Notes: generated by a model not told the origin, from the sequence alone. 64,000 nucleotides of DNA from a virus (IMGVR_UViG_2974703250_000001:1-64000); one strand, 5' to 3'. Numbered from the stretch's first letter, positions 39,421 to 63,876 are shown. Numbers and translations: made by a program.

Positions 39421-40839
39421 ATGGCTACCTTTTTGCAGAGCTTGCAGTCCCAGTTCAACACCACTCGCACGGAGAACGGCGATAAGGCGCACAAGTCGTC
39501 GCTTGATCCGGTGGTGGATTACTTCGGCCTAGCGGGCGCTATGCGTGACCGCGCCGAGGCGTCGGCTGACCTGTTCGAGAAGGCGTTCCGATTCGACCCA
39601 CAGGCGGCGGTCCGGACCCTGTTCTATCTGCGTGACGTGCGCGGGGGCCAGGGCGAGCGTGACGTGTTCCGTGCGGGCCTCAAGCGGCTTCTGGCGAAGT
39701 GGCCGGGCGCTGACTACTCGGTGCTCAAGCATGTGCCGTTCTACGGGCGCTGGGACGACCTGTTCTACGACGGCGCGAACGTCACGCCCGCCGTGGCCCG
39801 GATTCTCCACTATCAGTGGGCCTCCGACGTTGCGGCGTACGAGCGTGGCGATCAGGTGTCGCTCATGGCTAAGTGGCTGCCGTCCGACAAGGCCGCTAAC
39901 AAGGAGCTGGCTATCGCGGTGCGTCAGGCGCTCGGTCTGACTCAGCGTGAGTACCGGCAGACCCTTACGGCTCTTAGGGGCCGGATTGGTCTCGTCGAGC
40001 ACGATATGTCGGAGCGCACTTACGAGCACATCGACTACTCGCGGCTCCCGGCTCAGGCGCACCGTAAGCACGTTAAGGCGTTCCGGCGCAACGACGGTGA
40101 GCGGTACCAGGCGTTCCTTGACGCGGTGCAGCGTGGCGAGGCGAAGGTGAACACGTCGACCCTGTATCCGTACGAACTGTTCGACCTGTGCCGGTCGGAC
40201 CCTTCGGCGGCTGACGCGTTGTGGAAGAACCTGCCGGACTACACGCAGCCGGGCCAGGATGCGCTAGTCCTGCCGGACGTTTCCGGTTCGATGGCGGGGC
40301 GTCCTATCTCGGTGTCGGTGTCGCTGGCGCTGTACTTCGCTGAGCGCAACACGGGTCCGTACAAGGGCTATTTCCTGTCGTTCGACACCACGCCCAAGCT
40401 GGTTCAGGTGCCGGAGTCGGGAGACTTGCAGAGCAAGTTACGGGCGATCAGTAGCCATACCAACAACTGGGGTTCGACCAACTTGCGGGCCGCGTTTACC
40501 GCGATCCTCAGGGCGGGGTTGCAGTCGGGCACCGTCCCGGCCACGCTCTACGTCGTGTCGGACATGCAGTTCGATCAGGCGCTTAACAACGCCGATCTGA
40601 GCGTGTTCGAGTCGGCCAAGCTCTCGTTCCAGCAGGCGGGCCTTGAGCTGCCGCACGTCGTGTTCTGGAACGTGAACGCGCGGCATGATCAGTTGCCCGC
40701 GACGGCTATGGACGGAAACGTGACTCTCGTTTCCGGGCTGGCTGCTACGACGTTTGCGCTGGCTGTGCAGGGTAAGTCCCCGCGTGAGCTGGTGGACGAC
40801 GTAATCAATTCGGAGCGATACGAGAAAATCGTTCTGTAA
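39421..40839 (+). CDS. Ro60/Rsr-like RNA-binding protein (TROVE plus vWA)
   Basis: RTENG, LFYLRDVRGGQGER, YGRWDDL, AKWLPS, DVSGSM MIDAS, VSDMQFD, FWNV. Confidence 0.9.
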   Translation: MATFLQSLQSQFNTTRTENGDKAHKSSLDPVVDYFGLAGAMRDRAEASADLFEKAFRFDPQAAVRTLFYLRDVRGGQGERDVFRAGLKRLLAKWPGADYSVLKHVPFYGRWDDLFYDGANVTPAVARILHYQWASDVAAYERGDQVSLMAKWLPSDKAANKELAIAVRQALGLTQREYRQTLTALRGRIGLVEHDMSERTYEHIDYSRLPAQAHRKHVKAFRRNDGERYQAFLDAVQRGEAKVNTSTLYPYELFDLCRSDPSAADALWKNLPDYTQPGQDALVLPDVSGSMAGRPISVSVSLALYFAERNTGPYKGYFLSFDTTPKLVQVPESGDLQSKLRAISSHTNNWGSTNLRAAFTAILRAGLQSGTVPATLYVVSDMQFDQALNNADLSVFESAKLSFQQAGLELPHVVFWNVNARHDQLPATAMDGNVTLVSGLAATTFALAVQGKSPRELVDDVINSERYEKIVL

Positions 40840-40882
40840 AACTTCCATCTTGCCGGGATGGCTCGGTAAGGTTGGAAACAGG

Positions 40883-40936
40883 TGGACGCGAACAGCAATC
40901 AAAACTTCTTCTGCTAAAAGAAACCAAGTGCGTCCA
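40883..40936 (+). ncRNA. Minimal Y-RNA-like unit 1 carrying a tRNA-Ser(GCT) anticodon stem-loop
   Basis: TGGACGC/GCGTCCA terminal stem, ACAGCAA motif, TTCTT-CTGCTAA-AAGAA hairpin. Confidence 0.7.
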
Positions 40937-40948
40937 GTTTAAAACCTG

Positions 40949-41078
40949 TGGACCCCCACAGCAATAAAACTACTTCCATGATAAGGACGAGGCGCGGGTT
41001 CAAATCCCGCAGCTCTTACGGTTTTCACCGTAAGGGTTTAGCTCAGGGGCAGAGCGCGTAAGTAAAAACAGGGGTCCA
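40949..41078 (+). ncRNA. YrlA-like Y RNA (circularly permuted tRNA mimic)
   Basis: TGGACCCC/GGGGTCCA stem, ACAGCAA, T arm GCGGG-TTCAAAT-CCCGC, loop-closed acceptor 41011-41038, D arm GCTC-AGGGGCA-GAGC; adjacent to the Ro gene. Confidence 0.88.
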
Positions 41079-41092
41079 GTACATAGCGGCTG

Positions 41093-41146
41093 TGGACACT
41101 AACAGCGATTCTAACTCTTTCAAATGGTGAAAATAGAATGTGTCCA
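41093..41146 (+). ncRNA. Minimal Y-RNA-like unit 3
   Basis: TGGACAC/GTGTCCA stem, ACAGCGA motif, inner TTCTA/TAGAA stem. Confidence 0.65.
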
Positions 41147-41161
41147 GTTCCACCGCGTTTG

Positions 41162-41201
41162 ATCCGCCCCGCGCCTAAATGACTGCGGGGCGGATTTTTT
41201 T
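41162..41201 (+). terminator. Intrinsic terminator closing the Ro-Y RNA transcript
   Basis: ATCCGCCCCGCG / TGCGGGGCGGAT stem followed by a T run. Confidence 0.85.
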
Positions 41202-41341
41202 ATGCCTAACGGAGGAAACATGCCAGGACCGATGTCCGCACCTAACGGAAACAAGCTGATCACGGTGAGCGCAGAGGCCCGTAAGAAAGCCGGTCGGACC
41301 GGCAAGACGGAGCTGGTGCGCGAGCGGAAAGGTAACAAGCA

Positions 41342-41689
41342 ATGAAGGCTCTGGTTATCGCGGCTGCGGTCGCGGTTGGCCTGTCTATGTCTGCGTGCGC
41401 TACGCAGGACCAGCACTGGGAGACCGGCTGCAAGGTCACGGATAAGCAAATCCTGACCGACGTGAGCGGGTCCAACGGCAGCACGAGCACTACCCGCACT
41501 AAGCGTCTGAGCACGTCGTGCGGCGCTTTCAACGTCGAGGACGCATGGGAAGCGGGTTCGTTCAACTCGTATGACCTGTGGTCAAAGCTAGAGGTTGGTA
41601 AGACCTACGACCTCAAGGTGGGCGGCATTCGGAACGGGTTCTTTTCGATGTTCCAGACCGTCTTGGAGGTAAAGGAATCGAATGGCTAG
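41342..41689 (+). CDS. Lipoprotein
   Basis: Signal peptide with lipobox MSAC; beta-rich mature part. Confidence 0.65.
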   Translation: MKALVIAAAVAVGLSMSACATQDQHWETGCKVTDKQILTDVSGSNGSTSTTRTKRLSTSCGAFNVEDAWEAGSFNSYDLWSKLEVGKTYDLKVGGIRNGFFSMFQTVLEVKESNG

Positions 41690-51556: not shown

Positions 51557-51656
51557 ACGGTTAAGTCCGGGTTTCCGGACGTTTTCGTGGGCATTGGGTA
51601 CATGCGACGTACTGTTGTGTGTACCCAACAGCCCGACGAAAGAAAGGGGGTTGAAA

Positions 51657-52595
51657 ATGACTCTGACTCTTACCGCAATGCGCGGTTATCCCGGCTCGGG
51701 GAAGTCGACTACGGCGCGCACTGTTGCTAATAACACGGGCGCGGTGGTGGTTTGTCGTGACGAGCTGCGGAACATGCTGCACGGCGTGTACTTCAACGAT
51801 GGTTCTAACCATCCTAAGTCGCCTAAGGACTTTGAGGATGAGGTAACCATTGCGGAGCGTGCGCAGGTCGCAGCCTTTCTCAAGGCTGGCGTTTCGGTAG
51901 TTGTCGACGCTACGCATTTGGAGCCGTCTTACTTGCGTAAGTGGGCGAAGATGGCCTCAATGTACGGCGCTGACTTCGTGCGGGTCGATCACATCACGCC
52001 GGTTGACGAGTGTCGTAAGCGGGACCACGCCCGGATGCTCGCTGGTGGCCGGTACGTGGGTGACAAGGTTATCGAGAAGATGGCTAAGCGTCACCCGGTG
52101 AAGAACTGGCCGGATATTCAAGCGCCACCGACGTTCACGCCGGAGCCGGTTGAGTGGGAGCCGGGCCTGCCTACGGCAATCATTGTCGATATCGACGGCA
52201 CGGTGGCGCACATGACGGGGCGTTCACCTTACGACTACAGCCAGGTCCATACCGACGTGGTTGATGAGCAGATTCGATGGCTGGTCAACACGGTTGAGTC
52301 CGAAGGCGTGTTCGTCCTGTTCGTGTCGGGCCGGGATGACGAGTGCCGGGAGGCTACTGAGAAGTGGCTTGCGGAAAACGGCATCGTCTACGACGAGCTG
52401 TACATGCGGCCTACCGGCGCTAAGGACAACCACGGGAACAAGCTGCCCGACTACCTGGTGAAGTCCGACCTGTTCGATAAGCATATTCGCGGCAAGTACA
52501 ACGTGCGGTTTGTGCTCGACGACCGGGACCAGGTTGTGAACCTGTGGCGTGCGCTGGGCCTTAAGTGCCTGCAAGTTCAGCCGGGCGACTTCTGA
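51657..52595 (+). CDS. Polynucleotide 5'-kinase/3'-phosphatase (T4 PseT-like)
   Basis: GYPGSGKST P-loop; HAD DIDGT, SGR, DDR. Confidence 0.9.
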   Translation: MTLTLTAMRGYPGSGKSTTARTVANNTGAVVVCRDELRNMLHGVYFNDGSNHPKSPKDFEDEVTIAERAQVAAFLKAGVSVVVDATHLEPSYLRKWAKMASMYGADFVRVDHITPVDECRKRDHARMLAGGRYVGDKVIEKMAKRHPVKNWPDIQAPPTFTPEPVEWEPGLPTAIIVDIDGTVAHMTGRSPYDYSQVHTDVVDEQIRWLVNTVESEGVFVLFVSGRDDECREATEKWLAENGIVYDELYMRPTGAKDNHGNKLPDYLVKSDLFDKHIRGKYNVRFVLDDRDQVVNLWRALGLKCLQVQPGDF

Positions 52596-55891: not shown

Positions 55892-57169
55892 GTGAGCTTT
55901 GATACGCCGGAGAACGTTAACTACGCGGCGACAATCGTCAAGCTGCCGCAGGGCCTTCTCCTAGAAGGTCTCGACAACCTGGTGGGCGTGCCCATGTTCG
56001 GCTACCAGGCGCTCACCCAAAAAGAAGGCTACGAGCTGGGCGCTCTGCGGGTGCTGTTCATGGCCGAAACGCAGCTCGACGCGGACTACGCGCGGGAGAA
56101 CAACCTGTTCCGCGAGGCCACGTTGAACCGGGACGCCAGCGAGACCGGCTACCTAGAGCCGAACGCCCGTGTGAAGGCGATCCGGCTGCGCAAGCACCAG
56201 TCAGACGCACTGCTGATGCCGTTGTCGTCGCTGGCCTACACCGGCTACGACGTGTCCACGCTCAAGCCGGGCGACACGTTCGACAAGCTGAACGGCCACA
56301 CGATCTGCCGCAAGTACATCCCGAAGGGTAAGAAGCAGGCCACGCAGGGCCAGCCCAAGGTGCGTAAGCAGGTCGACGAGCGTCTGTTCCCGAAGCATCT
56401 GGACACGGAGCACTTCTTCCGGAACCTGCACTACTTCCGTACGGAGCGGCGCGTTGTGGTGACGCAGAAGCTCCACGGCACGAGCTGGCGGGGCGGCAAT
56501 ATCCCAGTTAACCGGACTAAGGGCTGGTTTGAGCGGTTCATTAACTGGCTGGGCTGGTTCACCCATGACACCGAGTACAAGCACGTCTACGGCTCTCGGA
56601 ACGTCGTTAAGGGCCGCTCGGAGAATAACCACTACTACGCGTCTGATCTGTGGGCCGAGTACGGAAAGAAGCTTGAGGGGAAGATTCCCGAGAACTTCAT
56701 CATTTACGGCGAGCTGATCGGATGGGTTGATAACGACACCCCGATTCAGAAGGGCTACACGTACAACCTGCCTCCGGGCCAGTGTGAGCTTTACGTGTAC
56801 CGGGTGGCGACGGTTAACAACCAGGGTGTGATTGCGGACCTGTCGTGGGAGGGCGTTAAGGACTTCTGCGCGAGCTTGGACCTTAAGACGGTGCCGGAGT
56901 TTTACCTGGGCGTCGATCATTACCCGTTCGCGGACAATGACGATGCCGTTGTCAAGATTGCCTCTGAGGCGTACCTGGACAAGCGGTATGCCGACGAGGG
57001 GTTCCCGAACGCGGTTCCGCTGAGTGACCGCAAGACGGTTGACGAGGGTGTCTGCGTCCGTGTTGAGGGCCAGATTCCGCACGTCTTTAAGGCGAAGTCT
57101 CCGAAGTTCCTTGAGCACGAGACTAAGCAGTTTGATAAGGGAGAGGTTGACCTTGAAGCGGTGGCATAA
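55892..57169 (+). CDS. ATP-dependent RNA ligase (Rnl2/DRB0094-like)
   Basis: Motif I TQKLHG, YGELIG, DEGVCVR, KAKS; N-terminal OB-like module. Confidence 0.85.
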   Translation: MSFDTPENVNYAATIVKLPQGLLLEGLDNLVGVPMFGYQALTQKEGYELGALRVLFMAETQLDADYARENNLFREATLNRDASETGYLEPNARVKAIRLRKHQSDALLMPLSSLAYTGYDVSTLKPGDTFDKLNGHTICRKYIPKGKKQATQGQPKVRKQVDERLFPKHLDTEHFFRNLHYFRTERRVVVTQKLHGTSWRGGNIPVNRTKGWFERFINWLGWFTHDTEYKHVYGSRNVVKGRSENNHYYASDLWAEYGKKLEGKIPENFIIYGELIGWVDNDTPIQKGYTYNLPPGQCELYVYRVATVNNQGVIADLSWEGVKDFCASLDLKTVPEFYLGVDHYPFADNDDAVVKIASEAYLDKRYADEGFPNAVPLSDRKTVDEGVCVRVEGQIPHVFKAKSPKFLEHETKQFDKGEVDLEAVA

Positions 57170-63803: not shown

Positions 63804-63876
63804 GCCACCTTAGCTCAGTTGGTAGAGCAGCCCCTTCGTAACGGGCAGGTCAGCGGTTCGACTCCGCTAGGTGGCT
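63804..63876 (+). tRNA. tRNA-Thr(CGT)
   Basis: Full cloverleaf GCCACCT/AGGTGGC, D arm GCTC/GAGC, loop TT-CGT-AA, T arm AGCGG-TTCGACT-CCGCT; CCA not encoded. Confidence 0.93.

Follow-up and report, generated by a model that had tools for sequence, protein, structure and literature searches.

A Y RNA-like unit with an anticodon-loop-like apical sequence beside a Ro60-fold gene in a cluster L mycobacteriophage

The Ro60-like gene and the three units that follow it

The DNA analysed here (the window) is a 64,000-nt stretch (IMGVR_UViG_2974703250_000001:1-64000) of a 77.6-kb virus record from an L4-type cluster L mycobacteriophage. Over its whole 361 nt, the region after position 40840 was 91% identical to Chaser, 85% to Bromden and 82% to Douge, and it was ~70% identical to the corresponding region of Faithunavirus-type phages; Chaser and Bromden belong to subcluster L4 (PMC10865867). 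Sequence comparison indicates that the segment at about 40879-40940 (unit 1) is a real short phage Y RNA-like gene, the first of three tandem units. Its helix begins 44 nt past the stop codon of a Ro60-like gene on the same strand. The features of the locus are as follows.

39421-40839, + strand: rsr-like gene for a 472-aa Ro60-like protein that is presumed to partner the RNAs (open reading frame, fold match and annotation)
40867-40872, + strand: putative −10-like hexamer TAAGGT for the three-unit transcript, with a presumed start near 40879-40881 (from comparison only)
40883-40889, + strand: 5' strand of the unit 1 terminal helix, TGGACGC, paired with 40930-40936 in every fold
40892-40898, + strand: ACAGCAA strand, an unpaired bulge on the 5' side and the presumed Ro-binding element, invariant in homologous units
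40904-40929, + strand: MFE alternative for the apical part, ACUU (40904-07) with AAGU (40926-29) and UUCU (40909-12) with AGAA (40919-22), loop GCUAAA (RNA folding, pair probabilities 0.6-0.86)
40906-40922, + strand: apical hairpin in the register of an earlier sequence-only reading, UUCUU / CUGCUAA / AAGAA (from sequence; pair probability ~0.03)
40930-40937, + strand: 3' strand of the unit 1 terminal helix, GCGTCCA, and a following G that recurs in homologues
40949-41078, + strand: unit 2, YrlA-like, with handle, V-position hairpin UCC-AUGAUAA-GGA, T arm, closed acceptor-like stem and D arm (Rfam and folding)
41093-41146, + strand: unit 3, short, with handle TGGACAC/GTGTCCA, ACAGCGA and hairpin UUUCA-AAUGG-UGAAA (folding and homologue comparison)
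41161-41203, + strand: intrinsic terminator, a 13-bp G+C-rich stem with a 10-nt loop and U7 (RNAfold, −27.6 kcal/mol)

The counterpart of the protein gene in Chaser and Douge is annotated as a 'Ro-like RNA binding protein', and the 472-aa product matched PHROG 850 ('RNA-binding protein'). Using Pfam, we found matches to DUF2828 and DUF7788 and weak vWA matches but none to the TROVE domain, and neither a sequence search nor a 38-member profile of the protein recovered Ro60 from the PDB. A different result came from an AlphaFold2 model built on 38 homologues (pLDDT 90.5), for which the best Foldseek match in the PDB was Ro60 (1yvr; E = 2e-7, TM = 0.60) over the full length, with the Ro60 of phage phiLo (9kop, 9l5y) and D. 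radiodurans Rsr among the other top matches. Because Ro60 structures were the top matches by fold and none was found by sequence, we take the partner gene to encode a Ro60 fold in a distant sequence family. On the basis of the model, the DUF2828 family may have gone unrecognised as a branch of Ro60 proteins, one with RNA partners of its own.

Scanning the array for consensus sigma-70 promoters and terminator patterns returned neither. Mycobacterial promoters lack a −35 element, and the scan was blind both to such promoters and to loops longer than 8 nt (the limit that caused it to miss the terminator), so promoter and terminator were judged by comparison and folding instead. The TAAGGT hexamer ends 10 nt before the unit 1 helix. 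Among distinct first-unit flanks, 22 of 41 have a TANNNT box 5-11 nt upstream of the handle, compared to 7 of 64 internal units, and the full TTGACA-17-TATAAT arrangement occurs at one distant locus. Chaser, Douge and Bromden all retain the terminator, with compensatory substitutions. Between the stop codon of the Ro60-like gene and the −10 box is a small hairpin, CCATC-TTGCCGG-GATGG (40845-40861); at the equivalent position, Faithunavirus-type phages have a much stronger G+C-rich hairpin that overlaps the −10 box. This hairpin may act on the protein gene as a terminator or attenuator. Directly past the array terminator, a 41-codon open reading frame (gp52 in Chaser) is annotated in relatives, at provisional window coordinates 41221-41343.

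Unit 2 matched the Rfam YrlA model in part (20.1 bits, below the gathering score of 69) as well as the T-loop, and its fold had a z-score of −4.4. A long-range stem, UACUU/AAGUA, pairs a strand upstream of the V hairpin with one downstream of the D arm, and it covaries: the pairs read UACAU/AUGUA in Bromden and CELFI and UUCU/AGAA in L005. This covariation supports the published permuted-tRNA (YrlA) layout for unit 2, in which the hairpin sits at the position of the variable arm and not that of the anticodon. We also considered the unit 2 hairpin as a true anticodon arm with stem CUUCC/GGACG and rejected it; the same bases are used by the covarying stem, and a C-to-A change in Bromden breaks CUUCC/GGACG while it compensates in UACUU/AAGUA. 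In Zakai (L080:470-540), Wilder and Gardann, GenBank gives a segment of the YrlA-like unit 2 the label tRNA-Thr or tRNA-Asn. Programs that find tRNAs combine the handle and the V hairpin, whose loop is CUGGUAA or CUGUUAA, with the T arm into a tRNA. These annotations are probably wrong.

A handle shared across a family of units

All three units in the window carry an ACAGC(A/G)A strand and share the layout GTGGAC-N3-4-ACAGC(A/G)A...GTCCAG. The Ro-binding motif published for YrlA and YrlB, GNCGAA(N)G (PMC4201824), is absent: units 2 and 3 read CACAGCAA and TAACAGCGA, and the CGCGAAC of unit 1 is an accident of its stem sequence only, the invariant element being ACAGCAA. Nor did the units contain GGUCCGA, the metazoan motif that we tested as a Ro-binding element. 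With ACAGCAA standing in place of the published motif, binding of the units by a Ro protein is proposed by analogy.

No Rfam match overlapped 40883-40936 even at E values up to 10, ARAGORN found no tRNA there, and Rfam at its gathering thresholds returned only a tRNA-Thr, which at 63804 is also the sole tRNA found in the window by ARAGORN and the Rfam tRNA model. Neither program gave any sign of a T arm, a D arm or an acceptor-like stem in unit 1, in agreement with the sequence-only reading, which had described a minimal Y RNA on a shared terminal stem with no other tRNA parts. The first half of that description is borne out as well: the handle is common to the two neighbouring units and to ~180 homologous units beside Ro-like genes, the neighbouring protein has a Ro60 fold, and ~50 stem sequences are always complementary.

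To describe this family, we searched with the protein, which gave 75 IMG/VR loci and another 9 from GTDB genomes, and defined units by a CAGCAA anchor with a flanking complementary stem. By this handle criterion there were 132 distinct short and 53 distinct long units, some of which are chance matches in coding sequence. A perfect stem of at least 7 nt accompanied CAGCAA in 54% of cases on the rsr strand, compared to 2% on the opposite strand and 7.5% for random anchors. The terminal stems of homologous units comprise ~50 different 7-nt sequences, each with its complement. Together with the strand comparison, this massive covariation argues strongly that the units are modular RNAs whose handle is conserved. 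Arrays flank the Ro-like gene, on its strand, at most of the 75 IMG/VR loci, in cluster L phages and in several MAGs; they hold from one to six or more units, most of them downstream of the gene and some upstream.

Arrays of up to six or more units were seen at L044:2946-3559, L069:3025-3989, L088:2930-3491, L037:1377-3530 and other loci, in IMG/VR contigs and in MAGs (Saccharibacteria, cyanobacterial and others), both upstream and downstream of Ro-like genes. Their contents are mixed, with short units, YrlA-like units and units that have a T-arm-like hairpin alone (GGTTCGATTCC). We also scanned IMG/VR with TGGACGCNNACAGCAA; among the matches listed, most were due to chance, and one new first-unit variant was left after filtering for the 3' strand.

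Register and recurrence of the apical loop

The sequence-only reading had placed a perfect tRNA-Ser(GCT) anticodon stem-loop at the tip of unit 1. Its letters are as it gave them, with TTCTT at 40906-40910, CTGCTAA at 40911-40917 and AAGAA at 40918-40922, all inside the terminal helix, and its tRNA numbering of the loop is correct: C32 at 40911, U33 at 40912, GCU at 40913-15, A37 at 40916 and A38 at 40917. We compared the hairpin to the tRNA-Ser(GCU) anticodon arm of Mycolicibacterium sphagni, a genome that also holds a related prophage, which reads ACUCA-CUGCUAA-UGAGU. The loops are identical at seven of seven positions and the stems (UUCUU/AAGAA versus ACUCA/UGAGU) share nothing, so that the likeness to tRNA-Ser(GCU) holds for the loop and fails for the stem.

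A 5-bp stem and a 7-nt loop with U33 and a purine at 37 can thus be drawn, but they are not the fold favoured by the energy model. The drawn structure has an energy of −8.7 kcal/mol (−10.3 kcal/mol for the best structure with the hairpin enforced) versus −12.5 kcal/mol for the MFE fold, and the probability of the pair C26-G38, which belongs to the drawn register, is 0.03 versus 0.86 for C29-G38 of the MFE fold. Relatives behave in the same way, with probabilities for the drawn and the shifted register of 8% versus 73% in Chaser and Douge and 26% versus 40% in Bromden. The two registers are mutually exclusive and the choice between them is ambiguous because UUC and AAG each occur twice. Other short units commonly have the layout of terminal helix, 5' bulge, second stem and apical hairpin. 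Thermodynamics and this common second-stem layout favour the shifted fold, whereas recurrence of the loop, described below, favours the fold first drawn.

Conservation of the loop is restricted to the closest relatives. The 17-nt hairpin is identical in the window, Chaser and Douge, in which the flanking linkers differ. We defined orthologues as first units with the same GGACGC handle. In the first unit of Bromden one A is missing, leaving a 6-nt loop in the drawn register; Faithunavirus-type first units read UGUU-UGCGGAU-AACA, or have a 6-nt GCGGAU loop; the first unit of the L005 / M. sphagni prophage type has the loop UGCAUAC; and first units of M. abscessus-type prophages read UUUCA-AUUUGG-UGAAA. 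None of the Faithunavirus-type, M. sphagni prophage-type or M. abscessus-type first units has U33 in place. Homologues that failed to keep the loop, U33 and a purine at 37 had been named beforehand as evidence against an anticodon arm; the pattern is kept in Chaser and Douge and lost in the other orthologous first units, and by that measure the anticodon reading fails for unit 1.

To ask how often such loops arise by chance, we compared 52 de-duplicated short units, from ACAGCAA to the 3' handle strand, to dinucleotide-preserving shuffles. A stem of at least 4 bp closing a 7-nt loop was found in 30 of the 52 units versus 13.2 expected, a count that none of 200 shuffles reached. More specific loop patterns, whose counts were reached in none of 300 shuffles, were also in excess in these units: 12 versus 2.7 expected for U33 with a purine at 37, 9 versus 0.6 for (C/A)U...AA, 12 versus 0.8 for ....UAA and 6 versus 0.1 for CU..UAA. 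Loops of 3-5, 8 and 10 nt were not enriched among the 52 units and those of 6 nt were weakly enriched. The 9-nt class was enriched too (25 versus 12.1 expected, 0 of 200 shuffles), an excess that probably reflects, for the most part, 7-nt hairpins whose closing pair was left out of the stem. A stem of at least 4 bp with a 7-nt loop and Y32, U33 and R37 is expected in about 3% of shuffled units (1.7 of 52), and for this reason the hairpin of unit 1 is weak evidence when taken alone and the enrichment across the family is what lifts the case above chance.

Within the 30 7-nt loops, C32 (14 of 30, P = 2e-4), R37 (26 of 30, P = 9e-5) and U36-A37-A38 (11 of 30, P = 2e-7) were enriched; U33, a hallmark of anticodon loops, was not significantly enriched on its own (13 of 30, P = 0.085), and five of the UAA loops had C or G at that position. 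The stems of these hairpins were of 5 bp (n = 14), 4 bp (n = 14) or 6 bp (n = 2). Elsewhere the loop CUGCUAA is closed by unrelated stems (AAUAGA/UCUAUU for L055, UCUUA/UAAGA for L057), and CUGUUAA, CUUCUAA, CUUUUAA, CUCUUAA, AUGGUAA and CUGAAAA were also seen, with GCU, GUU, UCU, UUU, CUU, GGU and GAU as the 'anticodons' among loops of the C-U-N-N-U-A-A type. Only about a quarter of short units have the anticodon-like motif, and a stem such as UUUCA/UGAAA carries 5-, 6- or 7-nt loops in different phages, with 8-nt loops on the same stems as well. This family of Y RNA-like units thus appears to include a class of apical loops that resemble anticodon loops, and unit 1 fits it exactly in the register first drawn. 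That exact fit is the best argument for this register. The description as an anticodon stem-loop accordingly holds at the level of sequence likeness and of the family-wide excess of 7-nt C-N-N-N-U-A-A loops, and it does not extend to the orthologous first units, in which the loop is lost.

In cluster L, the apical loops are AUGAUAA, CUGGUAA and CUGUUAA in the V hairpins of unit 2 and CUGCUAA in unit 1, which together give U-G-N-U-A-A, N being any of the four bases. TGCTAA was counted in 5 units versus 0.8 expected, and in the Faith1 and Crossroads third units UGCUAA is placed in other registers of the loop. With N free, the loops look less like a set of specific anticodons than like a shared recognition motif. 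Because the motif recurs among apical loops of the family, including the V hairpin of unit 2, the sequences suggest that the loop of unit 1 is best read as this shared motif and not as a mimic of tRNA-Ser(GCU) in particular. The shared motif is probably derived from tRNA.

Possible roles of the unit and its place among Ro-associated RNAs

The picture that we consider reasonably probable is of three co-transcribed Y RNA-like units with a handle for the Ro protein, variable apical modules, small and A/U-rich in unit 1, and a shared loop motif. A single transcript would start from the putative −10 promoter just past the Ro60-fold gene, end at the strong terminator and, judging from characterised systems (PMC4201824; phiLo, PMC12135203), be cut into separate RNAs. 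Ro60 binds Y RNAs whose genes lie beside its own, and these RNAs serve as gates or tethers (PMC4201824, PMC12135203); the Ro60 of phage phiLo binds both phage Y-like RNAs and host PNPase (PMC12135203). By analogy with these characterised Y RNAs, the phage Ro-like protein would bind each unit through the helix and the ACAGCAA strand, and the apical modules may serve as gates of that protein or link it to partners in the host. For unit 1, the candidate partners are a factor that reads the U-G-N-U-A-A loop, for example a protein that binds tRNA loops, or PNPase.

Unit 1 might instead have no sequence-specific apical role and act through its handle only, for example by occupying or gating the Ro-like protein, in which case the MFE structure would be the real fold and the loop a chance feature or decaying relic in low-complexity U/C...A/G sequence. 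Consistent with this, the MFE register is better by 2.2-3.8 kcal/mol, the apical parts of orthologues are very diverse compared to the invariant handle and ACAGCAA strand, and Bromden tolerates a deletion in the loop. We nevertheless regard this explanation as unlikely, given loop statistics that are far from random across the family and a 17-nt hairpin that stays unchanged in three phages while its linkers differ.

We are more doubtful still of a generic mimicry of anticodon loops. U36-A37-A38 are determinants of t6A, and tRNAs that decode ANN codons and have t6A at position 37 possess loops of the C-U-N-N-U-A-A type. Loops of this kind could bind, titrate or attract a factor that reads anticodon loops, for example a nuclease acting broadly on such loops or the machinery that makes t6A, and positions 34-35 would be free to vary. 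The strong excess of 7-nt loops with C32, U36, A37 and A38 on stems of 4-6 bp would fit such a role, and so would the presence of all four bases at loop position 35 in cluster L and the finding that tRNA enzymes already act on YrlA (PMC4201824). These points are set against the lack of significant enrichment of U33, with C or G in its place in five UAA loops, and against the roughly three quarters of short units that have no such loop and the 5-, 6- and 8-nt loops found on the same stems. The hairpin of unit 2, moreover, occupies the variable-arm position, and in the third units of Faith1 and Crossroads UGCUAA falls in other registers. It is just as improbable that the arrays form a variable panel of anticodon-arm look-alikes that serve as tRNA-defence decoys or as tethers for the Ro-like protein; such a panel would take in unit 1 (GCU), the V hairpin of unit 2 (GAU) and relatives with GUU, GGU, UCU, UUU and CUU.

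The sequence-only reading had gone further and proposed that unit 1 is a Ro-protected decoy, its anticodon stem-loop directed against an anticodon nuclease or tRNA-modifying toxin specific for serine tRNAs. The genome offers a setting for such an activity. Pnkp and RNA ligase form a classic tRNA-repair pair that in T4 mends damage from an anticodon nuclease, and the phage encodes both, in agreement with the annotation of Chaser: Pnkp (AAA_33 and HAD_PNKP) at 51594-52595 and an RNA ligase at 55892-57169. The phage further has 14 tRNA genes, in a battery that runs from 63804 of the window to ~67962 of the record, and none of them is a tRNA-Ser(GCU). With Pnkp and RNA ligase in the genome, tRNA damage is plausibly a relevant pressure. 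The decoy is likewise favoured by the full identity of the loop to that of Mycolicibacterium tRNA-Ser(GCU), by the possible 5-bp stem and by the invariance of the hairpin in the window, Chaser and Douge despite varying flanks. Nonetheless, the outcome for the decoy is mostly negative. Relatives do not keep the loop, which is changed in Bromden, Faithunavirus-type, L005 and M. abscessus-type first units, and this makes a serine-specific decoy unlikely; the pair probability is ~3% and the stem is unrelated to that of the tRNA. In a study of mycobacterial tRNases and mycobacteriophage tRNAs, tRNA-Ser(gct) was described as spared by the known nucleases, unlike serine tRNAs with GA in the anticodon (PMC10264068). 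The analysis gave the decoy no support and turned up no link between unit 1 and a toxin, and we judge it very unlikely.

Least credible of all, and highly improbable, is that the region holds no discrete RNA gene and is a structured 3' untranslated tail of the rsr-like mRNA. In its favour, the units follow directly on the stop codon in the orientation of the gene, and no promoter came out of the consensus scan. These points are outweighed by a modular handle that covaries across dozens of lineages, by arrays that elsewhere lie upstream of the gene, by the conserved −10 box of first units and by a hairpin resembling a terminator that parts gene from array in Faithunavirus-type phages.

Among characterised RNAs, a close parallel to unit 1 is YrlB, which Salmonella Typhimurium and M. 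smegmatis make as a second RNA bound by Rsr (Chen et al. 2014, PMC4201824). Both lie beside a YrlA and a Ro60 gene on the same strand, and both have paired ends, a conserved 5'-strand motif that is the presumed Ro site and no full tRNA-like domain. They differ in that motif (GNCGAA(N)G in YrlB versus ACAGCAA in unit 1), in the T arm that M. smegmatis YrlB has and unit 1 lacks, and in the protein partner, which by sequence is a TROVE protein for YrlB and of the DUF2828 type for unit 1. Unit 1 is in addition encoded by a phage and belongs to a putative three-unit transcript. With the tRNA-mimicking YrlA (RF02553), unit 1 has an indirect link, sharing its handle with the YrlA-like unit 2, and the loops of the two hairpins, CUGCUAA and AUGAUAA, are alike; it differs from YrlA in having no T arm, D arm, acceptor-like stem or Rfam match. 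YrlA itself is described as without an anticodon loop (bioRxiv 10.1101/312249).

Yrl1 and Yrl2 of the Thermus phage phiLo (PMC12135203) are, like unit 1, phage stem-bulge-stem RNAs that adjoin a phage Ro60 gene, and the phiLo Ro60 structures 9kop and 9l5y match the model of the Ro-like protein of the window. Yrl1 and Yrl2 differ in lying upstream of the gene and in carrying a CGAA motif, and no anticodon-like loop is described for them; for unit 1, binding is putative. The resemblance to the anticodon arm of tRNA-Ser(GCU) amounts to the identical CUGCUAA loop and a possible 5-bp stem, compared to a different stem sequence, the absence of D, T, variable and acceptor parts, a hairpin that is not the predicted optimum and a loop that is not conserved in orthologues. 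Metazoan Y RNAs, which associate with Ro60 and are contacted by Ro at GGUCCGA, and nematode stem-bulge RNAs resemble unit 1 in having a terminal helix, a conserved bulged strand and a variable apical module, but they show no sequence relation to it.

YrlA-like RNAs in mycobacteriophages were already known (PMC4201824), as were phage Y RNAs in general and loci with multiple Y RNAs. In the papers that we read, we found no mention of the ACAGCAA handle, of multi-unit arrays at DUF2828-type Ro-fold genes or of anticodon-like apical loops. The search likewise turned up no paper with expression data on cluster L arrays and no sequencing run listed for this DNA. What appears to be new is a family of short modular units with an ACAGCAA handle around DUF2828-type Ro-fold genes in phages, prophages and MAGs. 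The non-random and partly anticodon-loop-like apical loops of these units provide a testable handle on the targets of phage Ro/Y particles, and phages with such arrays also carry tRNA batteries, Pnkp and RNA ligase.
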